This document shows, in pieces, positions 30,898 to 48,378 of a stretch of DNA of 64,000 nucleotides. Origin of the DNA: an uncultured Planctomycetia bacterium (GTDB lineage: Bacteria > Omnitrophota > Gorgyraeia > 1-14-0-20-64-10). Every line of letters begins with the position of its first letter. Positions within the stretch are counted from its first letter, which is position 1. The notes beneath the pieces were generated by a model. That model had not been told where the DNA came from and searched no databases. It worked only from the letters and a program-made list of their open reading frames with translations. The position numbers and the translations under genes are program-made. The stretch lies in the NCBI GenBank assembly GCA_964372395.1, contig CAYJQV010000003.1, forward strand, positions 11,124 through 75,123. Direction: 5' to 3'.

Positions 30898-32124
30898 CTA
30901 CTTTTCGCCTGCGAGGCGGGCTTGAGGCAGGGAACCGCCCCGGGCCGTCAGGATCCTCTCGATGGCATCCCCGATCACTCGGTTCGGGGTGGAGGCGCCG
31001 GCCGTGACCGCCACGGTCACGGGGCCCGGGGGGAGCCAGCCGTCGGTGACCACCGGCTCCGCCTTCCCCACCGGCTTGTGACGGATCTGCCGGGCGGAAA
31101 GGATGCAATCGGCCTCATCGATGTGGTAGGTCGGCGCGTGCTGGGAGGCGATCTCGGAAAGATGGCTGGTGTTGCTGGAGTTGAACCCTCCGATCACGAT
31201 CACGACATCCGCCGGCTCCCGAACGAGCTCCAGGATCGCGTCCTGCCGGTCCTGCGTGGCGCTGCAGATCGTGTCGAAGGTCCGGAAGTGCTCGCCCACC
31301 CGCTCCTCGCCGTACCGGGCGGCGCAGGCCTCGCGCAGCAGGCCGGCGATCTCCAGCGACTCGCTGGAGAGCATGGTTGTCTGGTTGGCCACCCCCACGC
31401 GCTGGAGGTCCCGGTCCGGGTCAAAACCGGGCGAGCTCTTGGAGGAAAAGAAGCCGATGAACTGATCCCTGCCCTGCCCGGTCCGGATGTAGTCGCAGAC
31501 GCGGCCCGCCTCCGCCTTGTCCCAGACGACCAGGTAGCGCCCCCGCGGGAACTGCGCCGCCCGGGAGACGGTGGCCCGCGTTTCCTCATGACGGTAGTTG
31601 CCGTGCACCACCGCGGTGAATCCGTCCCGCGCGTACTGCTCCACCCGCTTCCAGACCAGCACCACCGACCCGCAGGTGGCGTCCACGAGGACCGAGCCCT
31701 TCGCCCTCAGCAGCTCCATCTCCTCCACCCGCGTGCCGAAGGCCGCGATGATCACCACGTCCTCGGGCCGCAGGTCCTCGATCCGCCGGTCCTGGGCACC
31801 CGGGCCGTTGAGGAACCCGATCCCCATCTCCCGCAGGCAGTGGTTCACCCGCGGGTTGTGGATGAGCTCGGTGGTGAGGAAGATGCGCCGGTCCGGGAAG
31901 CGTTTCCGCGTCTCGTACGCGTAGTCCACAGCACGCTCGACCCCGTAGCAGAAGCCGAACTCCTTCGCCAGCCGGAAGGTGATCTCCCCGACGCGGAGGG
32001 TGTTCCCGCGAGCCCGGATCTCCTCCACCAGGCGGCTGCGGTAATCCTGATTCAGATCCTCCTCGACCTGCTCCTTCAGCCCGAAGCCGCGTTGGAAGAT
32101 CTGGGCGCCTTGGATCTCAGTCAT
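30898..32124 (-). CDS. ispH: 4-hydroxy-3-methylbut-2-enyl diphosphate reductase (long form)
   Basis: The LytB fold has three conserved Cys (FGFCYGV, ...DATCGSV..., ...FDTICSATQDRQ) plus an extra C-terminal domain. I place the start at MTEIQG, about 32122-32124. Confidence 0.9.
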   Translation of the reverse strand: MTEIQGAQIFQRGFGLKEQVEEDLNQDYRSRLVEEIRARGNTLRVGEITFRLAKEFGFCYGVERAVDYAYETRKRFPDRRIFLTTELIHNPRVNHCLREMGIGFLNGPGAQDRRIEDLRPEDVVIIAAFGTRVEEMELLRAKGSVLVDATCGSVVLVWKRVEQYARDGFTAVVHGNYRHEETRATVSRAAQFPRGRYLVVWDKAEAGRVCDYIRTGQGRDQFIGFFSSKSSPGFDPDRDLQRVGVANQTTMLSSESLEIAGLLREACAARYGEERVGEHFRTFDTICSATQDRQDAILELVREPADVVIVIGGFNSSNTSHLSEIASQHAPTYHIDEADCILSARQIRHKPVGKAEPVVTDGWLPPGPVTVAVTAGASTPNRVIGDAIERILTARGGSLPQARLAGEK

Positions 32125-32146
32125 GGTGAAGCTCCATTCTATCGGC

Positions 32147-32175
32147 TTGGAAGGGCAAAAGCAACGCGCTATAAT
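32147..32175 (+). promoter_or_regulatory. sigma70-like promoter TTGGAA-N17-TATAAT, 10 nt upstream of pepM ATG (near-leaderless)
   Basis: ttggaagggcaaaagcaacgcgctataat, then ggcgttttcgATG. This is the best -35/-10 pair I found in the window. Confidence 0.5.
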
Positions 32176-32185
32176 GGCGTTTTCG

Positions 32186-33844
32186 ATGAAGGCGAAACGT
32201 TTCCGCGAATTGCTGGCTCGGCCGGGCCCGGTGGTCCTGGCCGGCGCCCACGACGCCCTCAGCGCCAAGCTGGTGGAGCGGGCCGGCTTTGACGCCGTCT
32301 GGGTTTCCAGCTTCGGCCTCTCCGCCGCCCAGAGATCGATGCCGGACGCCAATGTCCTCACCATGACGGAGACCCTCGAGGCGGCCCGCGCGATCAACCA
32401 CGCGGTCGGGATCCCGGTCATCGCCGACTGCGACAACGGCTACGGCAACGCGATCAACGTCATGCGCACCGTCACCGAATTCTGCGAGGCGGGCATGGCC
32501 GGCATCTCCATCGAGGACAGCACCTTCCCGAAGCGCTGCTCGCTCTACCCCGGCCGGCACGAGCTGGTCTCGGTCGAGGAGATGAGCGGGCGGATCCGAG
32601 CCGCCAAGAGCGCCTGTCCCAATCCCGACTTCCTCCTCATCGCCCGGACCGAAGCGCTCATCGCCGGGCTGGGCCTGGAAGAGGCGTTCCAGCGGGCGCG
32701 GGCCTATCGCCAAGCCGGCGCCGACGCGCTGCTCGTCCATTCGAAGGCCCGCTCCGCCCAGGAGGTTCTCGCCTTTGCGCAGGGCTGGAAGGAGGGGCCG
32801 CCGCTGGTGGTGGTTCCCACCATGTTCCCCAACGCAAGCGTCCAGGAGCTCTCCCAGGCGGGGTTCAAGGTGATCATCTTCGCAAACCACGCCCTGCGCG
32901 CTGCCGTGGCCGCCATGCGCGAGCAGCTCGGCCGCCTGCGGAAGGAAGGGCGAGCGGAGGTCCTGGACGGCTCCATCGCCCCTCTCGATGAGGTGTACGA
33001 TCTGGTCGGGGTGGAGGCGCTCCACGCGCAGGAGGAGGCGTTCCTGCCCGCCCCGCGCGAGCCGGTCCGATCCGTGATCCTGGCCGCCGGCTTCGACCAG
33101 CAGCTCCTGCCCCTGGTCGAGGACCGCCCGAAGGCGATGCTGGAGATCAAGGGCCGCTCCATCCTGGAGCGGCAGATCGGCCTGCTCCAATCGGTCGGCA
33201 TCACCGACATCACCGTGGTGCGCGGCTACCAGGCGCAGGCGGTCCAGCTGCCTCAGGTCCGCTTCGTGGACAACCCCCGCTTCGCGGAGCAGGGGATTGC
33301 TGCATCCCTCTTCGCCGCAGAATCGGTTCTCACCGGACGGACCCTCATCCTCTATGGGGACATCCTGTTCGACCGGGCCATCCTCGAGAAGCTGCTCCAG
33401 TCCCAGCAGGAGGTGAGTCTCATCGTGGACCGGGCCTGGTTCGACCTGTACCGGACCGAGGGGCGCTCGCCCGAGGGGGCGGATCTGGTGCAGACCGCCG
33501 AGCCGCCGGTGCGCAGTCACCGTTTCCTCGCCTCCGAGCAGCCGCTCACCGTGCAGCGGATCGGCCAGCGGATCGACAAGCGGCAGGCGACCGCGGAGTT
33601 CGTGGGGCTGGCGCTTCTGTCTGCGAATGGAACCGATTGGCTGAAGGAGGCCTACCGGCAGGGATCCCAGGCCCCGGCCGACCAGCCGTACCACGAGGCG
33701 GCCTGCTTCGCGCAGGCCTCGCTCACCGACCTCTTCCAGGAGCTGATTGACCGCGGCCAGCCCGTGCAGGCGATCGAGACGTACAAGGGCTGGATCGAGG
33801 TGGACACCTTCGAGGATTACCGCCGGGCCTGGTCGAAGCTGTAG
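32186..33844 (+). CDS. pepM: phosphoenolpyruvate mutase fused to C-terminal LicC/PntC-type phosphonate cytidylyltransferase
   Basis: N-terminal ICL/PEPM fold (...AHDALSAKLVERAGFDAVWVSSFGLSAA...IADCDNGYGN...). The C-terminal roughly 240 aa has a nucleotidyltransferase fold (VILAAGFDQQLLPL...IETYKGWIEVDTFEDYRRA). I prefer the start MKAKRF at 32186; the ORF track begins at 32123. Confidence 0.85.
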   Translation: MKAKRFRELLARPGPVVLAGAHDALSAKLVERAGFDAVWVSSFGLSAAQRSMPDANVLTMTETLEAARAINHAVGIPVIADCDNGYGNAINVMRTVTEFCEAGMAGISIEDSTFPKRCSLYPGRHELVSVEEMSGRIRAAKSACPNPDFLLIARTEALIAGLGLEEAFQRARAYRQAGADALLVHSKARSAQEVLAFAQGWKEGPPLVVVPTMFPNASVQELSQAGFKVIIFANHALRAAVAAMREQLGRLRKEGRAEVLDGSIAPLDEVYDLVGVEALHAQEEAFLPAPREPVRSVILAAGFDQQLLPLVEDRPKAMLEIKGRSILERQIGLLQSVGITDITVVRGYQAQAVQLPQVRFVDNPRFAEQGIAASLFAAESVLTGRTLILYGDILFDRAILEKLLQSQQEVSLIVDRAWFDLYRTEGRSPEGADLVQTAEPPVRSHRFLASEQPLTVQRIGQRIDKRQATAEFVGLALLSANGTDWLKEAYRQGSQAPADQPYHEAACFAQASLTDLFQELIDRGQPVQAIETYKGWIEVDTFEDYRRAWSKL

Positions 33845-33864
33845 AGCCGGTTTTGAGGCCCGCT

Positions 33865-35226
33865 CTATAGCCGCGCTCTCTCCTTCCAGAAGTACCGAAT
33901 CCAGAAAACCTGACAGCCCACCGCCAGAGCGAAAAGGAAGGCAAGCTTCGCCTGCAGAAGCAGCACCGCAACAACCAGGAGAGAGAAGTTCTCGTGAGTC
34001 AGATTTCTCCTCAACCAGCCGATCCCGCGCCCAGCCCGTTCGCTCCTGACGCCCCGTGAGGGGTCTCCGAAAATCGTGGGGCCGAATCCCCTCACCTTGG
34101 CCCAGAGGGTGACGAAGAAGTCCAGCGCGATCCCAAGAGCCGCGACCACACCCAGCGCCGTCGCCCACCCGGGGCCTCCGGCCCGCTGAACGCCTGCTGC
34201 CAGCCCAAGCACCAGGGCCATCTGCACCACCATGTCCACAATCGGATCAAACCAGCCGCCCCATCGGGTGCTCTGCCCGCGCAGGCGGGCCACCTCCCCG
34301 TCCCAGTCGTCCGTGAGATAAAAGAGCTGAAACAAGATCGCCGCGGTCACGTCCCCGCGCCGCGTTCCCTCTGCCGCGCACGCGGCGGCCCCCAACCCCA
34401 GGAACAGCCCAAGGAACGTCCACTGATTCGGGGTAACCGGAAGACGGATCACCCACGGGAGGAACCATCCGGCGATCTGCCTGTTCCAGCAGGGAGCCGG
34501 CTTCCACTGGGGATAGATCTCTTTCCGCGCCTTCTCCTGGTCCGCCGGCGTGTCAATCTCCGTCCAGGCCATCCCGTCCATGCTCTCCCGGCCCACCGGC
34601 GTTTTCTCAAAAAGCTCGGGATAAACCTGCTCGTGCTCGATTTGGGTCATCCCCGCGCGAACCTTCTCCTCCAGGAGCTCCCTCAAGAGATGCGCTCCTT
34701 CCTCCGACAGCTTCAGGAATCCGACCGACTCCCCGTACCGATCCATCCGCTGACGGATCTCCTCGGGAGGGCGCTTGGTGATCTGCAGAACCCGCCCCTC
34801 GCGCCCGAACACCATCTGCTCTTCTCCGGTGTCCGGGGCCTTGGCATCCACCAGGAGGCAGCTGGCATGGCGGGATCCGACGAGGCGTTCGTAGGCGGCG
34901 GGAGAAACCAGGACATCGGTGTCCATGACGAGGACGGCCCGGTCCAAAAAAGCGCGGGCGCTCCAGAGGGAGAGGATCGCCCCCTCACGGTACCGCTCGT
35001 TTTCGATGACGGTGAGGCGCATCCCGCCCGCCCGGGCGCGGGCCTCCCGGACCACCTCCTCTTTTCCGAAGCCGACCACGATGACCGCCTCAGCGACCCC
35101 CGCCGAACGGAGACTCTCCAGGATCCGGGCGAGCAGGGTTTTACCGCCGACCTCGATCAGGCATTTGGGGCCGGCCCCGGGGCCCATCCGCCGTCCGACC
35201 CCGGCGGCCAGCAGGATCGCGGTCAC
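33865..35226 (-). CDS. bifunctional nucleotidyltransferase / CDP-alcohol phosphotransferase (IPCT/DIPPS-like architecture)
   Basis: N-terminal ILLAAGVGRRMG...PKCLIEVGGKTLL (sugar/alcohol-phosphate cytidylyltransferase fold). The C-terminal TM domain has the motif DDWDGEVAR-x8-GGWFDPIVD (D-x2-DG-x2-AR-x8-G-x3-D-x3-D). Confidence 0.8.
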   Translation of the reverse strand: MTAILLAAGVGRRMGPGAGPKCLIEVGGKTLLARILESLRSAGVAEAVIVVGFGKEEVVREARARAGGMRLTVIENERYREGAILSLWSARAFLDRAVLVMDTDVLVSPAAYERLVGSRHASCLLVDAKAPDTGEEQMVFGREGRVLQITKRPPEEIRQRMDRYGESVGFLKLSEEGAHLLRELLEEKVRAGMTQIEHEQVYPELFEKTPVGRESMDGMAWTEIDTPADQEKARKEIYPQWKPAPCWNRQIAGWFLPWVIRLPVTPNQWTFLGLFLGLGAAACAAEGTRRGDVTAAILFQLFYLTDDWDGEVARLRGQSTRWGGWFDPIVDMVVQMALVLGLAAGVQRAGGPGWATALGVVAALGIALDFFVTLWAKVRGFGPTIFGDPSRGVRSERAGRGIGWLRRNLTHENFSLLVVAVLLLQAKLAFLFALAVGCQVFWIRYFWKERARL

Positions 35227-35675
35227 GGCTCGATCTGGCCGGAGCGTGTGGGACCGATTGCTTCCCCCTGGGGAGGCCCCACGCAGAGCTCCTCCCCCTG
35301 GCAGGTGACGGGAAAGGTGGGGACGGCGGCGCCGGGCCGGGTGAGGCAGCGGCCGGTCTCCAGATCAAAGAGCCAGCCGTGAATCGGACAGCGCACCGCG
35401 GGCCGCTCCAGCCCGTGCGCCCCGGCATCGGGATCCGCAATCATCTCCACCCGGCCGCGGAAGAGCGGACCGCTCCGGTGGGGGCAGCGATTGCCGACGG
35501 CGTACAGGCGTCCCTGCACGTTGAACACCGCGGCCTCCTTGCCGTGCGCCGGGAGAACCCGCGACTCGCCGGGTGGAGGAGCGGTCCATCGGCCAGACTC
35601 CGGCTGCACTCCCTCCATTAAACCCCGGCGGCGACGCCTCGCCGGAAGGTGGGGATGCCCGGGGCGTACCCCCAT
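35223..35675 (-). CDS. Rieske [2Fe-2S] domain protein (ferredoxin-like, no catalytic domain)
   Basis: CPHRSGPL ... CPIHGWLF (CXH...CXXH) in a 150-aa protein. Confidence 0.7.
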   Translation of the reverse strand: MGVRPGHPHLPARRRRRGLMEGVQPESGRWTAPPPGESRVLPAHGKEAAVFNVQGRLYAVGNRCPHRSGPLFRGRVEMIADPDAGAHGLERPAVRCPIHGWLFDLETGRCLTRPGAAVPTFPVTCQGEELCVGPPQGEAIGPTRSGQIEP

Positions 35676-36622
35676 CGGCGAACCACCTCCAGCGGATCCG
35701 GCTGCCGCCAGGCCTGGTACTTCAGGAGCAGATCCACCCCGTCGCAGGTGCGCTCCAGGTTCGTCTCCATCCCCGGGAAATCGGGCCAGCCGTTCTCATT
35801 CTTGGCCTGCACGATCCATTCCATCGCCTTCTCCAGCGCCGGCCGGGCCCGCTCGTCGGCGCGCAGCATCCGGGAGATGAGCAGGCCGGAGCGGGTGCAG
35901 TCCATCGTGTGGTCCACATTCTTCTCGTCCCACGACCCGTCGGCATCCTGATGCGCGAGGATCCAGTTCAGCCCCTTCTCGCAGACCGGCCGCACCGGCA
36001 GGCCGTCCGGCAGAACCAGCGAGGCAATGACCGAATCCTGCACCAGATGCGCCGTCGTCTCCACACCCGACGGCTGAAAGACCGGGTCGTACCATCCCCC
36101 GTCCTCCGATTGGCCGTCCAGGATGAAGCGCAGGCCCTTCCGCCAGGGCTTCCGGACCGCCCCCCTCATCTTGTCCGTCCCGAGCGCCAGAACGACGTTG
36201 AAGAAGCTGACCGGATGGGACGTCGTGTCGAGATCCCCCCACTCCTTGTCCACCCACCGGCCGTCCGCCGCCTGGGAGGAAAGGAAGTAATCAATCGCCT
36301 TCCAGATCGAGCGCTCAATCTCCGGATTTTCAACGACGGCGTTGGCGCGGATCAGCATGAGCCCGCAGAAGGCGGACACCCAGGCCGCCGACTCCGCCTC
36401 GGTCGACTCCCTGCCCCACCCCCCGTCCGCATGCTGCGTCTGCACCAGCGCCAGATACTCCGCCAGCGATTCCCTCACCCTGCCCATGTGAAGGATCACC
36501 CGCATCGCGTGGGCCACCAGCTCCATGTCCTGCGGCCCCTGCGTCAGACTCCAGCGCGCATGCTCCCGCATGAGGAATGCGTGTTCCGCCTCCGCCAGAC
36601 TCCCCACCCGTTCCAGATCCAT
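35618..36622 (-). CDS. prenyltransferase/squalene-oxidase repeat (alpha/alpha-toroid) protein
   Basis: Repeated QxxDGxW-type motifs (TQHADGGWGRE, SQAADGRWVD, GQSEDGGWYD, HQDADGSWDE). I place the start at MDLERVGS, about 36620-36622, preceded by a GGGGAG RBS. Confidence 0.7.
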   Translation of the reverse strand: MDLERVGSLAEAEHAFLMREHARWSLTQGPQDMELVAHAMRVILHMGRVRESLAEYLALVQTQHADGGWGRESTEAESAAWVSAFCGLMLIRANAVVENPEIERSIWKAIDYFLSSQAADGRWVDKEWGDLDTTSHPVSFFNVVLALGTDKMRGAVRKPWRKGLRFILDGQSEDGGWYDPVFQPSGVETTAHLVQDSVIASLVLPDGLPVRPVCEKGLNWILAHQDADGSWDEKNVDHTMDCTRSGLLISRMLRADERARPALEKAMEWIVQAKNENGWPDFPGMETNLERTCDGVDLLLKYQAWRQPDPLEVVRRWGYAPGIPTFRRGVAAGV

Positions 36623-36636
36623 CGCTCCCCTCCCTT

Positions 36637-37296
36637 TTATACGTACCCGAGCCGGATAAAACGTCCCAGCCCATCCGCCAACGACTGGCCGGCCTTCCGG
36701 ACCGCGCCCAGGAAGAGCCGCATCTGGCTCCAGCGCGAAGGAACGGCCAGCATCCGGAGCCCCTGCCGCCACGAGCCCACCGCCAGCCGCACCTCCATCG
36801 GATCCAGGATCGAACGAATCGCCACCCACGCCACACCGGCCTCCGTCGCCGCCCCAGCCACCGCCGATGTCTCCAGGTCGGCCGCGATCGCCCCGAAACG
36901 GACCCCGCCCTGCTGCTTGAGCGCCGGATCTTGAAGGGTCTTCGGAACCGTCAGGAACGGCCCCACCGAGGCCATGCCGTTGAGCCCGAAGGCCAGGCTC
37001 GGTTTCCTTCGAAGACCGGTCGATTCCTCGATCACCTCCGAGGCCATCACCAGGTCGCCCACCTGAAATCCCGGCCTCAAGCCGCCCGAGAAGCCGGTGC
37101 TCACGACGAGCCGGCAGCGCTGCCGCTGCAGCTCATCCCGGACCGCCGCGCCGGCCCGCTCCCCCATCCCGGTCACCAGACAGCGCACCCCCGCCGGCTC
37201 CGCCTGCCGGAAGCGGGCAAGCTCCTGCGGGGTGGCCGCCACCACCAGAATCGTCCCGCCGGATCGCCGCCCTTCATCCTCCATTGACGTACCCAT
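36637..37296 (-). CDS. hpnG: hopanoid-associated phosphorylase/nucleosidase (PNP-UDP family)
   Basis: MTA/SAH-nucleosidase-like fold (ILVVAATPQE...LVVSTGFSGGL...GDLVMASEV) in hopanoid gene context. Confidence 0.7.
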   Translation of the reverse strand: MGTSMEDEGRRSGGTILVVAATPQELARFRQAEPAGVRCLVTGMGERAGAAVRDELQRQRCRLVVSTGFSGGLRPGFQVGDLVMASEVIEESTGLRRKPSLAFGLNGMASVGPFLTVPKTLQDPALKQQGGVRFGAIAADLETSAVAGAATEAGVAWVAIRSILDPMEVRLAVGSWRQGLRMLAVPSRWSQMRLFLGAVRKAGQSLADGLGRFIRLGYV

Positions 37297-38305
37297 TGGC
37301 GCGGAACCATCCCACCGCCTTGTCCAACGCCTGCTCCACCGGCCCCTGGGGCAGATTCAGCTCCCGCACCGCCTTCGCCGAATCGAAGAACATCTTTTTC
37401 CTCGACATGCGAACCGCGTCCCATGGGATCCTGGGCGGCCTTCCCGTCCAGGCGCTCGCGGCCGTGCTCACCGCGGCCAGGCCCAGGGCCGCCGCGTGCG
37501 GGAGGCGGACGCGGGGGACAGGACGGCCGCTCACCCGGGACAGCATCTCCAGGATCTCCCTCAAGCTGAGATTCCTTGCCCCAAGGATGTAACCCTCTCC
37601 CTGCCGGCCCTTCTCCATCGCCAGGCAATGGCCCTCCGCCACATCCTCCACGTCGATGAGATTCAGCCCCGTGTCGACATAGGCCGGCATCCGCCCGGTC
37701 AGGAAGTCCACGATCATCTGACCGGTCGGCGTCGGCTTCACGTCACGGGAGCCCACCGGCGTCGACGGATGCACGATCACCACCGGGAAGCCCTGGGCTG
37801 CCGCCCCCCGCACCTCCCTCTCCGCGAGGAACTTCGAGCGCTTGTAATGGCCGATCATCTGCTCCAGCGAGACCGGCGTCTCCTCATCGGCCGGGCTCCC
37901 GTCCGGGGCGAATCCAAGCGTTCCGACGGTGGAGGTGTAAACCATCCGCTCGACCCCCTCCTGCCGGCAGGCGGCGATCAGACTCCGGGTTCCCCCGACG
38001 TTGGCGCCGTAAAGCTCCCGCGAATCCCGCGCCCAGAGGCGGTAGTCGGCCGCCACATGGTAGATCCTCCGGCAGCCGGCGACCGCGCGGCGCAGGGAGT
38101 CCGGATCGTTCAGATCCCCCTGCACGACCTCCGCCTCCAGGCCCTCCAGGTTCCGGCGCGGGCTGCTGGGGCGCACCAGGACCCGCACGCGCTCGCCCCT
38201 CTCCACCAGCCGGCGCGCGACGTGGCTGCCGACAAAGCCGGTCGCCCCCGTCACCAGCGTCAGGCTCACTGTATCCACCCTGCGGCGGGGTACCCGGCTT
38301 GGCAT
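37274..38305 (-). CDS. hpnA: hopanoid-associated NAD-dependent sugar epimerase/dehydratase family protein
   Basis: Rossmann motif LVTGATGFVGSHV, catalytic YKRSK, in hopanoid gene context. Confidence 0.7.
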   Translation of the reverse strand: MPSRVPRRRVDTVSLTLVTGATGFVGSHVARRLVERGERVRVLVRPSSPRRNLEGLEAEVVQGDLNDPDSLRRAVAGCRRIYHVAADYRLWARDSRELYGANVGGTRSLIAACRQEGVERMVYTSTVGTLGFAPDGSPADEETPVSLEQMIGHYKRSKFLAEREVRGAAAQGFPVVIVHPSTPVGSRDVKPTPTGQMIVDFLTGRMPAYVDTGLNLIDVEDVAEGHCLAMEKGRQGEGYILGARNLSLREILEMLSRVSGRPVPRVRLPHAAALGLAAVSTAASAWTGRPPRIPWDAVRMSRKKMFFDSAKAVRELNLPQGPVEQALDKAVGWFRANGYVNGG

Positions 38306-38444
38306 CGCTCGGCCGCCCCGGCGAGGCGGCCTTCGCTCTCTCCTCGACCGCGCACAAAACCGTGCCGCGCGGCCTGCGGACGTGCCGCGCCGGGCAACCC
38401 CGCCGCCGGACGCATCCGGTCAGCCTGTCCGTGCACGCGTCGGT

Positions 38445-39431
38445 TCACCGCACCCTCGCGAATTCCGCCAGGCCCAGCCCCACCCAGGCCAGCTCTCTCG
38501 CCCGGCGCACGAGCGCCAGCGCCAGGCCGGGCGCCGCATGGATCCCCAGCGCACCGCACACCACCAGCCCGATCCCCTCGCTCGCCCCCAGCGAAGCAGG
38601 AATGAGAAACGCACCGCTCCTGAAGAGGACCCAGAGCGCCTCGATCGAGAAGGCGGTCGACAGGGAAACAGGGATTCCGAGGAACCACAGGATGATCGCC
38701 ACCTCCAGCGCCCCCGCCACCCATCCCAGGAAATGGAAGCCGAGGGACCAGGCCACCAGGCCCGGCGAACGCCGGTAGAAGGAGACGACCGCCTCATCCC
38801 AGCCCCGTGCGCCGGAAAGCACCCGGCCGGACCAGCCCGGGACCACGCGCGCGAGGAAAGAGGCGGCCCAACCGAACGGGCGGAGGAACTGCACCATCAG
38901 GAACAGCCCCAGCAGGATCGCCAGCACCGGAAGAGCCCAACCGGCCCAGCGGATGAGCTCGGCGGAGGTCGGCTGAGTGGCCAGGGTCACACCCAACCCC
39001 ACCAGGATGAAGAGGAGCATGCTGACGGAAAAGGTGGTCTTCGCCACAACCACAGAGGCCATCCCATCCGCCATCGAGATCCCGTAGCGCTCCGCCAGCA
39101 GGGCCGCCTTCACCGGCTCACCCCCGATCCAGGCGGTGGGGGTAACGTAGTTGATCGCCTCGCCCGCCAGCCGGGCGCGGAACAGGCGGAGCCACGAGAC
39201 GCCTCCCCCTGATCCCACCCGAAGGGCATATTTCCAGCCGAGCGTGTCCAATCCGAAGATCACCACGTAGAAAACCAGCACCCAGAAGAACCGCCAGCGA
39301 AGGGCGCTGAGGAGATCCCAGACGGCCGTCAGATCCGAGATCCAAATCAGCCAGAGGAACAGCCCTGCCCCAAGCGCAAGGGCGATCCAGCGAAACCAAA
39401 TCCATCCTTGTGACCGTGAATTCGGATCCAC
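38445..39431 (-). CDS. hpnL: hopanoid-associated flippase-like membrane protein (UPF0104 / lysyl-PG synthase TM-region family)
   Basis: A 328-aa polytopic protein matching the LPG-synthase TM-region family, in a position typical of hpnL. Confidence 0.65.
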   Translation of the reverse strand: MDPNSRSQGWIWFRWIALALGAGLFLWLIWISDLTAVWDLLSALRWRFFWVLVFYVVIFGLDTLGWKYALRVGSGGGVSWLRLFRARLAGEAINYVTPTAWIGGEPVKAALLAERYGISMADGMASVVVAKTTFSVSMLLFILVGLGVTLATQPTSAELIRWAGWALPVLAILLGLFLMVQFLRPFGWAASFLARVVPGWSGRVLSGARGWDEAVVSFYRRSPGLVAWSLGFHFLGWVAGALEVAIILWFLGIPVSLSTAFSIEALWVLFRSGAFLIPASLGASEGIGLVVCGALGIHAAPGLALALVRRARELAWVGLGLAEFARVR

Positions 39432-39440
39432 CGTGAGCTC

Positions 39441-40085
39441 TTAAGAAATCGGCCGACGCAGGCGCGCCGCCATCCTCAGATCTGCCGGGATCCAGAAGAG
39501 GAAGGTGCCGACGAACGCCCCCCACAGGATCCAGCCCAGAACCCCCAACACGGCCGCCGCCAGAACGATCAACGAGAAGTCGCTGCGCAGATTCATCTTC
39601 ATCGCGTCGAGCGGATCCGGCGATGGCCCGCGCGGCGGATCGGGGTGGAGCAACGCCTCCCTGCCGCGCGCCCACACCTGTGACACCAGATAGGAGACGG
39701 TCGAGGCCACCACCCCCAGGGAGGTCGCCGCCCCCAGCCAGACCCAGCTCGGATGACCCAGATAGCTCCAGAGCCCCCACCCGAGGCTGAAGAAGAATCC
39801 GGCATGCACCACGCAGCCCACCCCGGTATCGAGCCAGCTGCCGAATCCGCTGCTGGTCCGTGTCGCCCGGGCCACGGCCCCATCCGCCTCGTCCAGGATG
39901 TTCGCCAGGACGAAGCAGAGGATCCCGAGAAGCAGGGATCCGGCGTTGCCCTCGATGAGCAGGGGGCAGCCGGTCAAACCGGCCAGAAGCGAGAGCGCGG
40001 TCACCTGGTTCGCCGAGATCCCCAGCCGGATGCACAGGGGGACCAGTCGAAGCCCCAGGAACCGGTTGAACGGCAGAAGGGACAT
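39441..40085 (-). CDS. CDP-alcohol phosphatidyltransferase-family membrane protein
   Basis: DEADGAVAR-x8-G-x3-D motif (LDEADGAVARATRTSSGFGSWLDTG) with TM helices; 214 aa. Confidence 0.75.
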   Translation of the reverse strand: MSLLPFNRFLGLRLVPLCIRLGISANQVTALSLLAGLTGCPLLIEGNAGSLLLGILCFVLANILDEADGAVARATRTSSGFGSWLDTGVGCVVHAGFFFSLGWGLWSYLGHPSWVWLGAATSLGVVASTVSYLVSQVWARGREALLHPDPPRGPSPDPLDAMKMNLRSDFSLIVLAAAVLGVLGWILWGAFVGTFLFWIPADLRMAARLRRPIS

Positions 40086-40087
40086 CC

Positions 40088-41200
40088 CTAGCCCCCCACC
40101 ACCATCTTCATCGCCTGCATCAGCCCCTTGAGGTCCGCTTGCAGCAATTGGCCCATGTGCGCCACGCGGAAGATCTTGCCCTGGAGCTCGCTCTGTCCTG
40201 CGTAGATCACGTAGCCCGCCCTCTTCAACCCGTCGTGGATCTGCGCGTAGCTCCTAGCCTGGGGGAGCCACAGGGCGGTCAAGGTGTTGGAGAGGAGCTT
40301 CTCCTCCAGAAGGAGCTTCAGCCCCAGCTTCCTGAAGCCCTGCCGGAGAAACGCCGCCCGCTGCCGGTAGCGGGCGATCCTCACCTTCAGCTTCTCCCGG
40401 ACCAGCTCATCCAGCGCTGCGTCGAACGCCGCCACCAGAGGAACGGCCGGCGTGAAAGGCGGATCCCCGGCCTCCTGCGACTTGAGCTGCAACGCCAGGT
40501 CCAGGTAGAGCGAACGGGGCTTGAGCTTTGCCACCCGCGCCGTTTCCTCATCCGACAGGAGCACGAAGGAGAGGCCCGGGGCGCCGTGCAGGCACTTCCC
40601 CGCCGAGCCCACGCAGATCCCGATGTGATGCTTCGTCAGGTCCAGCGGCTCCGCACCCAGGGCGCTGATGGCATCCACCAGAAGCCGCCGGCGGTACTTC
40701 TTCGCCAGACCCGCCACCTCCTCCACCGGGTTGAGCATTCCCGTCGAGGTCTCGTGATGCACCATCGCCACCGTCCCGATCTGACCATCCCGCCTCAGCG
40801 CCGCTGAAACACGGCCCAGGTCCGGCCGCTCGGTCACGGGGGAGCGGATCTCGACGCAGGGAATCTCATGGATCCGCGCGATCTGCGCCAGGCGCGAGCC
40901 GTACACCCCGTTGTTGATGACGAGCAGCTTCCTGCTTCCGTCCAGGCAGCTCAGGAGCGCCGCTTCGAGCGCCGCTGTCCCCGAACCGCCGATGATCACG
41001 CAGCTGTAGCGGTGGTCCAGCCCCAAGGCATGCACCAGCTTCGCCCGGACCGTCTGGAGGAGCTGGCTGAACTCCGGCTCCCGGTGGCAGATGTCCGGCC
41101 CGCCCAGCGCCGCCTTGACATGCGCGCTGGTGTTGACCGGGCCGGGGCAGAGCAGGATCTGGCGGCGGCTCACGGGCCGCGGCGCGGGTGCAGCGGGCAT
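40088..41200 (-). CDS. phnW: class V aminotransferase, 2-aminoethylphosphonate:pyruvate transaminase-like
   Basis: AGXT/PhnW-like core (...ILLCPGPVNTS...VHHETSTGM...GSAGKCLHGAPG...). My start choice is M69; the upstream 68 codons of the ORF track are Arg/Ala-rich low-complexity sequence. Confidence 0.7.
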   Translation of the reverse strand: MPAAPAPRPVSRRQILLCPGPVNTSAHVKAALGGPDICHREPEFSQLLQTVRAKLVHALGLDHRYSCVIIGGSGTAALEAALLSCLDGSRKLLVINNGVYGSRLAQIARIHEIPCVEIRSPVTERPDLGRVSAALRRDGQIGTVAMVHHETSTGMLNPVEEVAGLAKKYRRRLLVDAISALGAEPLDLTKHHIGICVGSAGKCLHGAPGLSFVLLSDEETARVAKLKPRSLYLDLALQLKSQEAGDPPFTPAVPLVAAFDAALDELVREKLKVRIARYRQRAAFLRQGFRKLGLKLLLEEKLLSNTLTALWLPQARSYAQIHDGLKRAGYVIYAGQSELQGKIFRVAHMGQLLQADLKGLMQAMKMVVGG

Positions 41201-41393
41201 CGGCGTCGGCGCAGCCGCCGGCGGCGGCTCCGCCGCTCTCCGCTTCGGAACCGGCCTGCGCGCTGCCAGCCGCCTGCGGGCGACCCGCCGGGCGGCCCTG
41301 CGCGCGCTGAGCTTCCTGCGCCTTCTCGCCTGAGCTGCCCGACGCGCTCGGCTTGGTCCACCTGCTCGGCCTGCCCGATCCGCTCGACGACCC

Positions 41394-41957
41394 TTACGAT
41401 GCATTCATCGCCTCCTTGAATCGGTCGGTGATCTCCTCCGGGGAAAGCCGCACCCGCTCCGCGGGGGCCGCCGTATCCGGCTGACACTTCACCAGAAGAA
41501 AAGCCGGACCGGCGCTGGAGCGAACCTCGCGCCACGCGGCTGCCAGCTCCCCCGGATCCCGGGCCGTCCGCACCGCCGCGTACCCACAGGCCGACGCCAC
41601 TGCCGAAAGCGCCACGCGGTCGGAGTAGGTGGCCTGATTTCCCGTCGAGGCATACGCCTCGTTGTCCAGGGCCACGTGAATCAGCCGCCTCGGCCCAATC
41701 GCCCCGATCATCCCCAGCACCCCCATCCCCATCAGGATCGCCCCGTCCCCGTCCAGCACCACCACAGGAAGCTCCGGCCGGCACAGGGCAATCCCCAGGC
41801 CGATCGGCGCCGCCAGGCCCATCGACCCGATCATGTAAAAATTGCCCGGCCGGTCCGCGCAGGCCTGCATCTCCCGGCAGGTGTAGCCGGTGGTGCAGAC
41901 CACCAGCTCCTCCTCGAGCTGCCCGGCGAGGATCCCGATCGCCTCCCGCGTCGTCAT
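41394..41957 (-). CDS. TPP-dependent phosphonopyruvate (or sulfopyruvate) decarboxylase, beta subunit (C-terminal TPP-binding domain)
   Basis: ...GSMGLAAPIGLGIALCRPELPVVVLDGDGAILMGMG...ALDNEAYASTGNQ... (TPP motif GDG-x24-N). My start choice is MTTREAIG, overlapping the alpha-subunit stop. Confidence 0.75.
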   Translation of the reverse strand: MTTREAIGILAGQLEEELVVCTTGYTCREMQACADRPGNFYMIGSMGLAAPIGLGIALCRPELPVVVLDGDGAILMGMGVLGMIGAIGPRRLIHVALDNEAYASTGNQATYSDRVALSAVASACGYAAVRTARDPGELAAAWREVRSSAGPAFLLVKCQPDTAAPAERVRLSPEEITDRFKEAMNAS

Positions 41958-42506
41958 TGGGGACGCTCTACTTTGGGACACTCCGGTTGCTGGTGTGTCC
42001 CAAAATGGAGCGTCCCCCGGATCAGGAGGGCCGCCGGGATCCGCTCCCTTCGCATGAAGGCGTCCGCCCGGCCGATCGCCTCGCCGAGCTCCCCCGGCTC
42101 CGGAACCCAGACCGGAATCCCCACCTGCCGCAGAAGCGCCTCACAGTGCCGGCCCATCACCCGGTGCTCCGGCGCGTCCTTCCCCTGATACCCCCTGTAG
42201 CCCACCAGGAGCATCGCCGGAATCCGGTAGATGAGATTGAGCGAGGTCAGCGCATTGAGGCAGTAGCCGATCCCCGAATTCTGCATGAGGACCGCGGGCC
42301 ACCGGCCCGCCAGATATGCCCCAGCGGCAAGCCCCACCGCCGCGTCCTCACGAACCGCTGGGACGTATCCGACCGGATCCTGCTCCAGCTGCTCGATGAG
42401 GGAGGCCACCAGGGAATCCGCCACCCCCGTGAAAAAATTGAAGCCGCAGCCCTTCAGGGATCCCAGGCACCCTTCCGCCGCGCCGACCGCGCCCGCCAAC
42501 TTCATG
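41954..42506 (-). CDS. TPP-dependent phosphonopyruvate (or sulfopyruvate) decarboxylase, alpha subunit (N-terminal PYR domain); last ~20 codons encoded by repeat element A
   Basis: MKLAGAVG...[18 protein letters not shown]...[34 protein letters not shown]... is the ComD/Ppd N-terminal domain. The start overlaps the hpnH stop (ATGA). Confidence 0.75.
41956..42014. repeat. palindromic repeat element family A, copy 2
   Basis: GGGGACGCTCTACTTTGGGACAC-TCCGGTTGCTGGTGT-GTCCCAAAATGGAGCGTCCCC, with arms about 95% identical to copy 1 and a related loop. Confidence 0.8.
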
Positions 42507-43563
42507 ATTGACGCCCGCGGCCGTTGCCTGTCGGGCGCCGCGCGTGCCCGTTGCCCGACGGACCCCGTGCGGGCCGCAGCGCATGCAGCATGTTCCCGAG
42601 AGACCGCGTCGCATCCGTCACCGCGGTCGGCTCGTATCCGCAGTGAACCATGCAGTCGGCGCAGCGCGGGTCGCGCCCCGTCCCGTACCGCTCCCACGGG
42701 GTCTCTTCGATCAGCTCCCGGAAGCTCCGGACGTAGCCGTCGCTCATCAGGTAACAGGGTTTCTGCCAGCCGAAGATGTTTCGGGTCGGATTTCCCCACG
42801 CGGTGCACTGGTAATCGCGGTACCCCTGGAGGAACTCGAGGAAGAAGGCGGAATGGTTGAACCGCCAGCGGGGATCCGCGTTGTCCAGGATCTGGCGGAA
42901 GAGCGCCTTCGTCTGCTCTCTCTGCAGGAAATGCTGCTGGTCCGGCGCCTTCTCGTAGGGATAGCCCGGCGAGATCATCATCCCGTCCACCCCCAGATCG
43001 GTCAGGAAGTCGAACATCCGCCGGAACTCCTGCGGATCGGCCCCCAGGAAGATCGTCGTGTTGGTGGAGACGGAGAAGCCGGCCTCCTTCGCCGCCCGTA
43101 TCCCCTCCACCGCCTGGCGGAAAACCCCCTTGCGGCAGACCGCCCGGTCGTGGGTCTCCTCCAGGCCGTCGAGATGGATGCTGAACCGGAAGTAGGGAGA
43201 GGGCCGGTACTCCCCGAGCTTCTTGGTCAGCAGGATCGCGTTCGTGCAGAGGTAGACGAACTTCCTGCGCCGGACCAGCCGCTCGGCGATCTCCGGCATC
43301 TCCGGATGAACGAGCGGCTCCCCGCCCGCGATCGAGACGACCGGCGCCCCGCATTCGAGGGCCGCCTCCTCGCATTCCTGCGGGGAGAGCCGTTTCTTCA
43401 GCATCTCCTCGGGATACTGGATCTTGCCGCACCCGGCGCACTCCAGGTTGCAGCGGAAGAGCGGCTCCAGCATGAGGACGAGGGAAAACCTCTCCAGCCC
43501 CCGCAGCTTCTGGGTGAAGACGTGCCGCGCCACCGCAAGCCCCTGCCGCCACGCGACCGCCAT
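42502..43563 (-). CDS. hpnH: hopanoid biosynthesis radical SAM protein (adenosylhopane synthase)
   Basis: Radical [11 protein letters not shown] with HpnH-like downstream sequence. I place the start at MAVAWRQ, about 43561-43563; the upstream ORF-track extension overlaps shc in another frame and is rejected. Confidence 0.85.
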
Positions 43564-43571
43564 GAAGCCCC

Positions 43572-45596
43572 CTAGTCCCTCAGCCGCTGCCTGGCTTCGC
43601 TCAGGGCCAGGAGCGGAAAGATGACCCGGTACAGGTGGTATTTCAGATAAAAGACGCGCGGAAAACCGGTCCCGGTGAACGGCTCCTCGGCCCAGTCCCC
43701 CTCTTCCCGCTGGGTCCGGAGGAGAAACTCCAGCCCCTTCCGGAAGGCCGGTTCCCCGACCCACCCCAGACTCATCAGCGCCATCAGCGCCCATGCGGTC
43801 TGGGATGCAGTGGAAACTCCTCGGCCCTTCTCGGCAGGATCGTCGTAAGACCGGCAGCTCTCCCCCCATCCCCCGTCCGGATTCTGGTGAGTGACGAGCC
43901 AGCGGCCGGCCTGCTGATACCGGATGCCCTCCATCGGCTCTCCCGAAAGCAGGAGCCCCCGCAGGGCCAGCCAGCTCCCATACGTGTAGTTGACCCCCCA
44001 TCGCCCGAACCAGGTGCCGTCCGCCTCCTGCCGCTCCCGCAGGAAACGGACGCCCCGCCGGACCGCAGGATGACCCTTCGGCAGGCCCGCCGCATGCGCC
44101 AGCTCCAGCATCCGCCCGGTGATGTCCGCCGCCGAGGGATCCAGCATCGCGTTGTGGTCGGCGAACGGGAAATGGGTGAGCGCCTGGCGGTCGTTGTCCT
44201 TGTCGAACGAGCTCCAGCCCCCGTCCCGATTCTGCATGCTCAAGACCCACTCCAGCCCCCGCCGGAAAGCCCCCTCGAAATCCACCCGCTGTGCCGTCGC
44301 GGCACCGTGCGCCGTGGTGCCGGGCCGCGCCGCTCCGCCGCGCATCTTCTTGAGCGCCAGGAACGCCAGCAGGACCTGGCCGGTGTCATCCACGTCCGGG
44401 TAGAATGGATTCCTGAACTCGAACGCCCAACCGGCCGGCTTTCCCCCGGGGTTCTTGACCACCCAGTCGCCCCAGATCCGGATCTCCTGGCCGAGCAGCC
44501 ACTCCACCGCCCGCTCCAACGCCGCGTCCAAACCCGGTACCAGGTCCCGTTCGGTACCTGGTACCGATTGGGCCGCCTGCGCGAGCGCGTAGGCCGCCAG
44601 CGCCGTGTCCCAGACCGGAGAAAAACAGGGCTGCACCTTCAGATCGTCCCCCTCCTCCAGATCCAGCCGCTCCAGCTCCCGCAGCGACCGCTCGAAGAGG
44701 GGATCCCCGTCGGAGTAACCCAGGGATTTCAGCGCGAAGACGGCGTTCAGCATCGCCGGGAAGATCGCCCCCAGCCCGTCCGTCTCCATGAGGCGCTCGG
44801 TGATCCATCGGTCGGCGCGCCGCAGCGCCAACTCCCGCAGCGGCTTCCAGCCGGAGCGCTCGCAGAGCTTGAGCAGGCGGTTCGCTCCGAGGAAGAAGAA
44901 GCGCCATCCGGCCCCTCCCTTCTGCAGATTGGTGGCCCGCGCCCGCTTGCGCGCCGGGTCACGCCACAGCTCCTCCAGCGAGAACGGCGCCCGGACCCAC
45001 GCCGGCCGCCCGGCGTACACCACCGAAAGGGGGACCAGGATCGTGCGGGACCAGCAGGAGATCTCGTAGATGTTGAACGGGAACCAGCGCGGCAGGAGGA
45101 TGAGCTCCGGCGGCAGGGCTGGAACCTGATCCCAGGGATACAGGCCGAAGAGGGCCAGGTACACCTTCTCAAAGCTGTTCACCCGCTCCAGGCCGCCCAC
45201 CCGCAGGATCACCGCCCGTGCCCGCTGCAGGATCTCCTCCTGCGGCCCGTGCCCGGCCAGCCGGAGCGCCACGTACGCCTTGACCGTCACGTTGAGCTCC
45301 GCCGGGCCGCCCTGGTAGATGGGCCACCCGCCGTCGGGAAGCTGATTCTTCAGGATCGTCCGGACGAGCCGCGCCTGGCGGAGCGGATCCACGCGGCCCA
45401 GCAGGTGCATGAGCTTGACGGTGTCCGACTCGAGGCTCGTGTCCGCCTCCAGCTCCCCGCACCAGTACCCCTCCGGCGCCTGCCGGCCCAGGAGGAACCG
45501 GCCCGCCCGCTCGATCGCATCGTCGATCGAGCCGGCCGGGGTCCGGCCCGGTTCAACGAGCACCGCCGGGCCGGATCCGACGGGGCTAATGGACAT
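43572..45596 (-). CDS. shc: squalene-hopene cyclase
   Basis: 674 aa with multiple QW motifs ([48 protein letters not shown]) and the catalytic DxDDT-type motif DVDDTG. Confidence 0.95.
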
Positions 45597-47499: not shown

Positions 47500-47505
47500 C
47501 GGCTC

Positions 47506-48369: not shown

Positions 48370-48378
48370 CCTTGTATT

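Follow-up and report, generated by a model that had tools for sequence, protein, structure and literature searches.

A fused cytidylyltransferase and CDP-alcohol phosphotransferase in a phosphonate and hopanoid operon of Omnitrophota, a candidate phosphonate head-group enzyme

Which compound is activated, and to which acceptor is it passed, by a nucleotidyltransferase that is fused to a membrane CDP-alcohol phosphotransferase and encoded among phosphonate and hopanoid genes? The question is raised by a single gene in the window analysed here, a stretch of 64,000 nucleotides, and it touches a wider one. Roughly half of the phosphonate gene clusters in bacteria are believed to act in decorating lipids or glycans, but an enzyme that attaches 2-aminoethylphosphonate (AEP) to a lipid has so far been characterised in no bacterium (PMC6697681, PMC8942020). 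From domain content, distant similarity and gene neighbourhood we propose that the fused protein is probably a bifunctional phosphonate head-group enzyme, which would make CMP-AEP and transfer AEP to a lipid alcohol.

The fused gene and its operon

The preliminary description of this locus had reported an N-terminal NTP-transferase domain followed by a C-terminal CDP-alcohol phosphotransferase domain, and Pfam confirms both on the 453-aa open reading frame. NTP_transf_3 (PF12804) covers aa 3-132 (E 4e-18) and CDP-OH_P_transf (PF01066) covers aa 265-376 (E 1.3e-12, 48.8 bits against a cut-off of 22). The same order on one chain is found by structure matching and in the AF2 model (pLDDT 89, pTM 0.84), and by its domain content the product is a genuine two-domain enzyme. 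The gene starts with GTG, shares its first 4 nt with the stop end of the Rieske gene before it and has a GC3 of 0.81. Its parts and its neighbours are as follows.

32123-33844 (+): PEP mutase with a second NTP_transf_3 domain (PepM-NTase); PEP_mutase 213.8 bits, NTP_transf_3 50.1 bits
33865-35226 (-): fused cytidylyltransferase and CDP-alcohol phosphotransferase, 453 aa, IPCT/DIPPS architecture
33868-34491 (-): its C-domain, membrane CDP-alcohol phosphotransferase, aa 246-453, PF01066
34501-35226 (-): its N-domain, LicC/PntC-like nucleotidyltransferase, aa 1-242, PF12804
34627-34638 (-): invariant EHEQ of the N-domain
35182-35214 (-): NTP loop LLAAGVGRRMG of the N-domain
35223-35528 (-): small Rieske [2Fe-2S] protein, 101 aa, translationally coupled to the fused gene; Rieske E 4.8e-14, CPH...CPIH ligands
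35618-36622 (-): single-domain class II terpene cyclase-like protein (alpha/alpha toroid), 334 aa, from AF2 and Foldseek
36637-37284 (-): HpnG-like nucleoside phosphorylase/nucleosidase; PNP_UDP_1 50 bits, TIGR03468 (HpnG) 74 bits, below the cut-off of 187
37274-38305 (-): HpnA, hopanoid-associated SDR/epimerase; TIGR03466 496 bits, above the cut-off of 367.65
38445-39431 (-): HpnL-like LPG_synthase_TM (flippase-like) membrane protein; PF03706 114.8 bits, TIGR03476 161 bits, below the cut-off of 195.65
39441-40085 (-): stand-alone CDP-alcohol phosphotransferase paralogue, 214 aa; PF01066 30.6 bits
40088-41200 (-): 2-aminoethylphosphonate aminotransferase (AEPT); TIGR03301 347 bits against a cut-off of 360.8
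41394-42505 (-): phosphonopyruvate decarboxylase (Ppd) split into beta (41394-41957) and alpha (41954-42505); TPP_enzyme_C, TIGR03297 185 bits, TPP_enzyme_N
42502-43563 (-): HpnH, adenosyl-hopene transferase (radical SAM); TIGR03470 521 bits, above the cut-off of 225
43572-45596 (-): squalene-hopene cyclase (SHC); SQHop_cyclase_N 362 bits, SQHop_cyclase_C 411 bits
45586-51546 (-): isoprenoid and squalene genes DXS, FPP synthase, HpnE, HpnD and HpnC, upstream on the same strand

The neighbours named in the preliminary description, pepM-pntC and a Rieske gene, are both in place, the PepM-NTase gene being convergent with the fused gene, their stop codons 20 bp apart. AEP and hopanoid genes stand in the same operon, in agreement with the phosphonate and hopanoid setting given there. 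The operon is tight and on one strand, leading from the squalene synthase genes by way of SHC and HpnH down to the fusion, and it recurs in about 14 Omnitrophota species with 53-63% identity. Its conserved order is SHC, HpnH, Ppd, AEPT, (CDP-alcohol phosphotransferase), HpnL, HpnA, HpnG-like, cyclase-like, Rieske and, last, the fusion. Wherever the sequence upstream of the fusion is long enough, Ppd and AEPT are present. The synteny within Omnitrophota may reflect one inherited event. As to the cyclase-like protein, its AF2 model (pLDDT 94) is matched by Foldseek to drimenyl-PP synthase, SHC, 8PAJ and MstE, its WxDLDTTSHP motif is invariant, and across loci it co-occurs with PepM-NTase and the Rieske protein.

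The cytidylyltransferase domain and its relatives

The reference for the first step is Tde1415, a PntC-AEPT and a biochemically proven AEP cytidylyltransferase (PDB 6PD1/6PD2; Rice et al. 2019, PMC6697681). Comparison with characterised enzymes, as the preliminary description had suggested, places the N-domain nearer to this protein than to IPCT or LicC: a sequence search matches it to Tde1415 PntC (6PD1) over the whole domain, aa 3-240, with 46 bits (E 1.9e-11), against 31 bits for stand-alone IPCT (2XME) and 27 bits for LicC. Foldseek gives 7e-14 against the PntC structure, and at the level of fold IPCT, PntC and LicC are not told apart for this domain. Glu199, part of the invariant EHEQ, aligns with Glu196 of Tde-PntC, a contact of the AEP amine. 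Another contact of the amine, Glu104, corresponds to Asp102, as in the phosphocholine enzyme LicC, and this replacement is counted against our proposal. The context is that of PntC, a LicC-like PF12804 domain adjoining PepM-NTase in the same operon as Ppd and AEPT. The N-domain is only 27% identical to the NTase domain of the neighbouring PepM-NTase. That the cluster already encodes this PepM-fused nucleotidyltransferase is likewise counted against the proposal; AEP clusters in general pair a PepM-fused transferase with another, also when they have a single CDP-alcohol phosphotransferase gene (PMC8942020).

A profile search of 1.84 billion representatives returned 520 matches at E<=1e-30, mostly free-standing transferases of 240-260 aa; a few dozen were other proteins with two domains. 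Free-standing relatives with 46-52% identity lie directly 3' of PpdA-PpdB-AEPT, usually with PepM-NTase upstream, and at two loci (L006 and L045) these genes overlap. These AEP-linked relatives come from metagenome-assembled genomes labelled Binatia, Deltaproteobacteria, Thermodesulfobacteriota, Nitrospinota and Alphaproteobacteria, and they correspond to the "second PntC" (PntC2) of AEP clusters. Loci of the Binatia and Deltaproteobacteria type have no CDP-alcohol phosphotransferase gene after PntC2-HpnK. The N-domain belongs with these LicC/PntC-like transferases 3' of AEPT and does not fit an inositol-phosphate cytidylyltransferase. Some free-standing relatives stand outside AEP clusters, at locus L046 and in a Rhizobium trio of NTase, GHMP kinase and CDP-alcohol phosphotransferase, and these too are counted against the proposal.

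A fusion in the reverse order, CDP-alcohol phosphotransferase first and NTase second (P0120), is found in a cluster of PhyH, the fusion, PepM-NTase, Ppd, AEPT and MlaC, and arose independently of the fusion described here. Such a natural joining of activation and transfer, in two independent domain orders, points out a transferase that would use a CMP-phosphonate, and a single polypeptide carrying both steps is open to assay.

The membrane domain, its acceptor and alternative reactions

The full CDP-alcohol motif given in the preliminary description is indeed complete: DDWDGEVARLRGQSTRWGGWFDPIVD (aa 306-331, 34234-34311) contains every residue of Dx2DGx2ARx8Gx3Dx3D, which is unbroken in all 29 members of the family. 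AF2 models the C-domain as one short and six long helices within aa 246-447, and AF2299 matches it with E 1.5e-9. A search with the C-domain alone returned fragments of the same family and otherwise CDP-alcohol phosphotransferase proteins of about 30% identity, whose contexts gave no clue to donor or acceptor. One of the latter lies in a Streptomyces locus beside menaquinone and cytochrome genes, and another is paired with LPG_synthase_TM.

The second CDP-alcohol transferase noted 4 kb away exists, with a correction to its catalytic site. It is 32% identical to the C-domain, and in its motif DEADGAVARATRTSSGFGSWLDTGVG (39816-39893) the fourth and final Asp is replaced by Gly. The suggestion that two activation-and-transfer modules indicate a two-step or two-substituent head group is weak, because the stand-alone gene is missing from 6 of the 14 related Omnitrophota operons covering that interval, because the copy in the window has lost this Asp, and because a pair of nucleotidyltransferases is, as said above, general in AEP clusters.

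We propose the following course. PepM, Ppd and AEPT of the cluster would supply AEP, the cytoplasmic N-domain would convert CTP and AEP to CMP-AEP, and the membrane C-domain would pass the aminoethylphosphonyl group to a membrane lipid at its hydroxyl, releasing CMP. The zwitterionic product might then be moved to the outer leaflet by the HpnL-like flippase-type protein. The logic of activation and transfer would be that of IPCT/DIPPS and the Kennedy pathway, and the protein would represent a fused form of the PntC2 and CDP-alcohol phosphotransferase pair in predicted "Group 1 phosphonolipid" clusters.

Gene neighbourhood leads us to favour as acceptor, with somewhat less than even confidence, an extended hopanoid polyol made by SHC, HpnH, the HpnG-like protein and HpnA of the same operon. 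In Mycetohabitans, Roseomonas and B. cenocepacia the conserved cores are unfused, with CDP-alcohol phosphotransferase, HpnL, PntC2, aepX, aepY and AEPT. This module adjoins the hopanoid cluster in Mycetohabitans and lies inside it in Roseomonas, which makes a hopanoid acceptor plausible; in B. cenocepacia it does neither. In other phyla the AEP module stands beside bona fide HpnK, HpnI, HpnJ and HpnN, and the LPG-synthase protein encoded in the AEP cluster of Burkholderiales reaches 329.8 bits as HpnL, past the cut-off of 195.65. More tentatively still, the operon could make a bacteriohopanepolyol esterified with AEP (a "phosphono-hopanoid"), to which the fusion would add the head group and which the HpnL-like protein would flip.

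The main alternative acceptor is diacylglycerol or another lipid alcohol. The same CMP-AEP chemistry acting on diacylglycerol (or ceramide) would give a phosphonate analogue of phosphatidylethanolamine, and the hopanoid genes would be adjacent only since both pathways remodel the envelope. Eukaryotic CDP-alcohol phosphotransferases take CMP-AEP with diacylglycerol. The unfused module has already been predicted to make "phosphonolipids" (PMC8942020). In B. cenocepacia the DNA around the cluster of AEP, CDP-alcohol phosphotransferase and HpnL genes is free of hopanoid genes for about 20 kb in each direction, so that a universal adjacency of the module to hopanoid genes is rejected, and for the P0120 cluster no SHC gene lies within 10 kb. 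Against such an acceptor, hpnH and hpnA/hpnG-like flank the AEP genes within a single operon in Omnitrophota, the linkage with hopanoid genes recurs in Mycetohabitans, Roseomonas and the further phyla named above, and the cyclase-like protein travels with PepM. We consider an ordinary lipid acceptor unlikely, though it deserves serious attention.

It is far less probable that the protein is a true IPCT/DIPPS-type enzyme, one that makes CDP-inositol and passes inositol phosphate on to yield di-myo-inositol phosphate or an inositol lipid. IPCT/DIPPS provides both the best curated family (NF041135) and the best solved structure, 4MND, by sequence and by fold, with 6PD1/6PD2 next in Foldseek. The curated families nearest to the C-domain also use inositol phosphate (AIPS 46 bits and PIPS 34 bits, all far under their cut-offs), and this is counted against our proposal as well. 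The likeness noted in the preliminary description holds for the architecture and not for the N-domain as an inositol-phosphate cytidylyltransferase: the family score is 120.1 bits under an equivalog cut-off of 580, and relatives of the domain lie within AEP operons. The EHEQ that is common to the fused protein and PntC falls into a gap in the alignment with IPCT. Inositol-1-phosphate synthase, already noted as lacking nearby, was not found in the 64-kb window when the called genes were scanned, including all open reading frames of at least 300 aa with coding-type composition. Di-myo-inositol phosphate is known as a solute of hyperthermophiles, and the relatives were recovered from environmental metagenome-assembled genomes, several of them labelled groundwater.

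No more credible is a reversal of roles, by which the N-domain would activate a lipid-linked sugar phosphate (the HpnG-like phosphorylase might, for example, form a phosphoribosyl-hopane), giving a CDP-linked hopanoid that the C-domain would transfer to a soluble alcohol, as in CDP-diacylglycerol chemistry. The operon does contain this HpnG-like gene of the PNP family, and the fold of the N-domain is common to sugar-1-phosphate nucleotidyltransferases. The free-standing relatives of the N-domain are of about 250 aa, have no membrane-protein Pfam domain, are coupled to AEPT and often have no HpnG nearby, all of which speaks against the idea; AEP has no hydroxyl and cannot be the acceptor, and direct support is nil. 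A housekeeping PgsA or PssA fused by chance to a nucleotidyltransferase can practically be dismissed, since beyond the shared family PF01066 the score for PgsA is 26.6 bits against a cut-off of 304, the curated PssA family gives no match to the fusion, and at all related loci examined the gene belongs to an AEP/hopanoid operon, none of them offering a housekeeping context, so that the orthology considered in the preliminary description was not found.

The proposed head-group enzyme would have consequences beyond this operon. Papers of 2025-2026 still describe the function of the hopanoid-associated protein HpnL as unknown, and the repeated placement of the AEP module in or beside hopanoid clusters links the module to this protein. 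This raises the question of whether the uncharacterised phosphonolipids are hopanoid derivatives; on phosphonate-bearing hopanoids, the literature searched gave nothing beyond genome-mining remarks. If the reading is true, a phosphono-hopanoid would be a lipid class not previously described, and the unfused modules of PntC2, CDP-alcohol phosphotransferase and HpnL would have the same role in cultured bacteria, including Burkholderiales and Acetobacteraceae. HpnL would gain a function, the long-sought "Group 1 phosphonolipids" would be identified, and hopanoid biomarker inventories and estimates of the membrane phosphonate pool would need revising.

Comparison with known systems

The IPCT/DIPPS of Archaeoglobus fulgidus (4MND; NF041135) has the same domain order and the full eight-residue motif in its membrane domain, and presumably a similar logic, with a soluble CMP/CDP-activated head group made and used on one polypeptide. 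The Omnitrophota protein differs in its score below the cut-off, in having no inositol-phosphate synthase nearby and in an N-domain that goes with AEP-cluster transferases, and its expected product is a phosphonate ester of a lipid instead of a soluble di-inositol phosphate. Eukaryotic choline and ethanolamine phosphotransferases of the Kennedy pathway also join a lipid alcohol acceptor to a soluble head group activated with CMP or CDP, which in ciliates can be CMP-AEP, but these are not fused to a cytidylyltransferase and their sequences are only distantly related. With PntC (Tde1415, PMC6697681) the fused protein shares the LicC-like PF12804 fold, the equivalent of Glu196 and the neighbouring ppm and AEPT genes; the partner domain is a membrane transferase where that of PntC is an aminotransferase, and the Glu104 position is Asp.

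At the level of gene clusters, speculated "phosphonate-terpene" clusters of Nitrosococcus and Acetobacteraceae have PEP mutase and AEP genes beside squalene/hopene genes, as in the window (PMC7285500, PMC8942020, PMC8776678). These reports remark on the clusters from genome mining and propose nothing at the level of enzymes, and the fusion, the link to HpnL and the spread across phyla are not mentioned in them. A matching parts list is that of the "Group 1 phosphonolipid" or "Burkholderiales_CDP-OH" clusters (Li and Horsman 2022, PMC8942020), where Burkholderiales account for 36% of 882 ppm gene neighbourhoods from RefSeq; Group 1 phosphonolipids are predicted from gene clusters, the product of the Burkholderiales cluster itself being uncharacterised. 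The unfused cores of Mycetohabitans, Roseomonas and B. cenocepacia match the published core. Mycetohabitans, B. cenocepacia and locus L052 also carry a 2-oxoglutarate/Fe(II) oxygenase, which would serve a 1-hydroxy-AEP head group; a domain scan of the window from 32123 to 51546 found none. The window holds the Group 1 core of Ppm-NTase, Ppd, AEPT, second PntC, CDP-alcohol phosphotransferase and LPG-synthase-TM protein (HpnL-like, at the score listed above), and differs from Group 1 clusters, apart from the oxygenase, in the fusion of the second PntC with the CDP-alcohol phosphotransferase, in a Ppd carried by two genes, in its added Rieske and cyclase-like proteins and in its embedding in a hopanoid operon.

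The fusion gene and its operon

The preliminary description of a two-domain open reading frame at 33865-35226, here placed on the minus strand, is borne out by Pfam domains, an intact motif and a confident AlphaFold model, and together these make the observation real at those coordinates and far beyond chance. In its 453-aa product, aa 3-132 match NTP_transf_3 (E 4e-18), and aa 265-376 match CDP-OH_P_transf, the CDP-alcohol phosphotransferase (CDP-OH) domain, with 48.8 bits where the cut-off is 22. Residues 306-331, DDWDGEVARLRGQSTRWGGWFDPIVD, form the complete Dx2DGx2ARx8Gx3Dx3D motif, which is complete in 29 of 29 aligned family members. The model, built from the family alignment (pLDDT 89, pTM 0.84), predicts an alpha/beta domain and, after it, seven helices, one of them short and six long. 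A third-position GC of 0.81 in a window of 67% GC is consistent with a genuine gene; its GTG start overlaps the end of the preceding Rieske gene, stop codon included, by 4 nt, and MTAILLAAGVG is the common start of the protein and its relatives. The fusion is the final gene of a tight same-strand operon, listed here in order of transcription.

Genes of the operon
Minus strand: two squalene/phytoene-synthase genes, HpnE, FPP synthase and DXS (operon start)
Minus strand: squalene-hopene cyclase (SHC)
Minus strand: HpnH (521 bits, cut-off 225)
Minus strand: split phosphonopyruvate decarboxylase (Ppd), then 2-aminoethylphosphonate (AEP) aminotransferase (AEPT)
39441-40085, minus strand: stand-alone CDP-OH transferase, 214 aa
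Minus strand: HpnL-like LPG_synthase_TM protein
Minus strand: HpnA (496 bits, cut-off 367.65)
36637-37296, minus strand: HpnG-like phosphorylase (74 bits, HpnG cut-off 187)
35618-36622, minus strand: alpha/alpha-toroid protein, 334 aa
Minus strand: small Rieske protein, then the fusion (operon end)

A gene joining PEP mutase to a second NTP_transf_3 domain (PepM-NTase) is convergent with the fusion, 20 bp separating the stop codons, and is followed by IspH. The HpnG-like phosphorylase scores about equally as a futalosine hydrolase; it is a divergent member, which may act on adenosylhopane by hydrolysis or by phosphorolysis. The public counterpart of the window is contig CAMTXW010000040.1 (L001) of MAG GCA_947085785.1. 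Over the stretch compared, the window has a 20-bp insertion, GGCCTGCGGACGTGCCGCGC, at 38371-38390, which lies between the HpnL-like and HpnA genes and produces a direct repeat of 9 bp, and single-base changes at 39014 and 44307, which affect the HpnL-like gene and SHC once each. SufB (18156-20801, plus strand) is split by an intein carrying a LAGLIDADG homing-endonuclease domain.

Full-length relatives form about 70 clusters from Omnitrophota MAGs, some labelled 'uncultured Planctomycetia', at 53-63% identity with one at 90%. The order SHC-HpnH-PpdA-PpdB-AEPT-(CDP-OH)-HpnL-HpnA-HpnG-like-toroid-Rieske-fusion recurs in all loci of sufficient length, usually with convergent PepM-NTase and IspH after the fusion, and remoter fusions (43-44% identity) occur in AEPT-HpnL-HpnA-fusion-IspH arrangements (L038). 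The toroid protein is the most conserved of the operon, at 75-82% identity across Omnitrophota against 53-63% for the fusion, and at 55-59% in Binatia. Its confident model (pLDDT 94) resembles class II terpene cyclases, including single-domain 8PAJ/8PAK and MstE, and its invariant WxDLDTTSHP is reminiscent of the DxDD(T) motif. The trio of PepM-NTase, this cyclase-like protein and a ferredoxin-sized Rieske protein (32123-36622 in the window) recurs in other phyla (L055, 8239-11366; L044, 731-3670), in L055 without adjacent Ppd or AEPT, and thus the cyclase-like/Rieske pair may have its place in the phosphonate part of the pathway, not in the synthesis of hopanoids.

Assignment of the two domains

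By sequence, the N-terminal domain (aa 1-242) scores 46 bits over aa 3-240 against the AEP cytidylyltransferase Tde1415 (6PD1), 31 against stand-alone IPCT (2XME) and 27 against LicC, and fold comparison does not tell the three apart. In the HMMER alignment Glu199, in an invariant EHEQ, lies opposite Tde-PntC Glu196, one of two residues touching the AEP amine (PMC6697681); the position of the second, Glu104, is Asp, as in LicC. The strongest support is genomic context. Free-standing relatives of 250 aa (46-52% identity), from MAGs labelled Binatia, Deltaproteobacteria, Thermodesulfobacteriota, Nitrospinota and Alphaproteobacteria, directly follow PpdA-PpdB-AEPT, usually with PepM-NTase upstream, and in two loci (L006, L045) the genes overlap. 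A 33-35% identical gene with the annotation 'phosphocholine cytidylyltransferase family' lies within the aepX-aepY-AEPT cluster of Mycetohabitans, Roseomonas and B. cenocepacia; it is the 'second PntC' (PntC2) listed in the seven-gene 'Burkholderiales_CDP-OH' core by Li and Horsman (PMC8942020). Rice et al. (PMC6697681) point out that their model clusters contain two transferases, one fused to ppm and one separate. The structure that they solved, Tde1415, is a PntC joined to the aminotransferase, not to Ppm. The N-domain is only 27% identical to the PepM-fused domain of the window.

The C-terminal domain (aa 246-453) is a bona fide but divergent CDP-alcohol phosphotransferase. Curated models for archaetidylinositol-phosphate synthase, PIP synthase and PgsA give 46, 34 and 27 bits, all far under their cut-offs, and a search with this domain alone returns few matches beyond its own family. 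It is 37% identical to the Mycetohabitans AEP-cluster CDP-OH protein in the motif region. An independent fusion of reverse order, CDP-OH then nucleotidyltransferase (P0120), lies in a PhyH / fusion / PepM-NTase / Ppd / AEPT / MlaC cluster. Two fusions of opposite order, both in AEP clusters, suggest that the transferase uses the product of this nucleotidyltransferase.

The architecture had been likened to IPCT/DIPPS; the domain order is indeed the same, but neither the curated score (120 bits against 580) nor the gene content fits membership of that family, since the reported lack of an inositol-phosphate synthase holds among the called genes of the 64-kb window. Membership of the housekeeping PgsA/PssA families, which would have undermined the earlier reading, fails outright on curated models.

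Two other combinations were seen. N-domain relatives joined to an O-methyltransferase (577 aa; P0084-P0086 and a JGI locus) belong to a cluster of the order HpnK-HpnI-HpnJ-PepM-Ppd-AEPT, after which come a CDP-OH protein of 366 aa and an LPG_synthase_TM protein; the phosphonate head group there may be methylated. Rhizobium pRltTA1A (L054, 11992-14468) carries an NTP transferase / GHMP kinase / CDP-alcohol phosphatidyltransferase trio without AEP genes, a separate predicted kinase-activate-transfer module for some alcohol.

The second transferase and the lipid acceptor

The stand-alone transferase, 32% identical to the C-domain, is a paralogue of it. Its gene is present in eight related operons covering the AEPT-HpnL interval and is missing, with no space for a gene, in six (L010, L011, L016, L019, L021, L024). 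The window's copy starts its motif with a diverged DEADGA and ends it with ...WLDTGVG (39816-39893, minus strand), Gly replacing the fourth Asp, as also in the public contig, whereas other Omnitrophota orthologues keep the full motif (DNCDGE...D). The fourth Asp is held to be the catalytic base from the AF2299, DIPPS and PIPS structures. The earlier suggestion that two modules mean two substituents is therefore unsupported as a general feature and doubtful for this genome.

The hopanoid context of the AEP module is striking but indirect. In Mycetohabitans rhizoxinica the AEP/CDP-OH/HpnL/PntC2 module directly adjoins dxs-HpnN-ispH-hpnH-hpnA-shc-hpnD, and its LPG-synthase gene is a full-score HpnL (329.8 against 195.65); in Roseomonas marmotae the module sits between ispH/hpnH and FPP synthase/HpnN. 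In other phyla HpnN and HpnK, HpnI and HpnJ flank Ppd-AEPT-PntC2, with HpnN under its curated cut-off and the other three above theirs in L006. The Omnitrophota operon L009 has hpnJ-hpnK-hpnI inserted, between two stand-alone CDP-OH paralogues (1260-5995), which points, tentatively, to a glucosamine or cyclitol-ether hopanoid as product or acceptor in that species. Such neighbourhoods make a hopanoid polyol the favoured candidate acceptor, though at less than even odds. Against it count the B. cenocepacia module, whose flanks contain no hopanoid gene for about 20 kb in each direction, the chance that Omnitrophota synteny reflects a single inherited event, and the lack of any phosphonate-bearing hopanoid in the literature searched, which offered only genome-mining remarks on a possible 'phosphonoterpene'. 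Diacylglycerol or another lipid is the main alternative, somewhat less likely than a hopanoid polyol. In Binatia/Deltaproteobacteria-type loci (L029) no CDP-OH gene lies near the PepM-Ppd-AEPT-PntC2-HpnK operon, which is closed by a 251-aa ORF without Pfam match (11583-12338).

Proposed reaction and known systems

The links of the N-domain to AEP clusters and the two fusion orders lead us to read the protein as a putative AEP cytidylyltransferase and aminoethylphosphonyl transferase in one chain. The N-domain would convert CTP and AEP to CMP-AEP, and the C-domain would transfer the head group to a lipid hydroxyl, giving lipid-O-AEP and CMP. Eukaryotic members of the CDP-alcohol phosphotransferase family use CMP-AEP. 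In the literature searched we found no mention of the fusion, its restriction to Omnitrophota or its reverse-order counterpart, nor of the HpnL link and the breadth of the AEP-hopanoid association; recent papers on hopanoids still describe the role of the HpnL family as unclear, and phosphonates do not come up in them. Through the fusion, both the phosphonolipid and the HpnL questions become directly testable. The parts and the logic are already known from the IPCT/DIPPS architecture, PntC and the predicted Group 1 phosphonolipid clusters, and the proposed chemistry would run parallel to that of IPCT/DIPPS and the Kennedy pathway.
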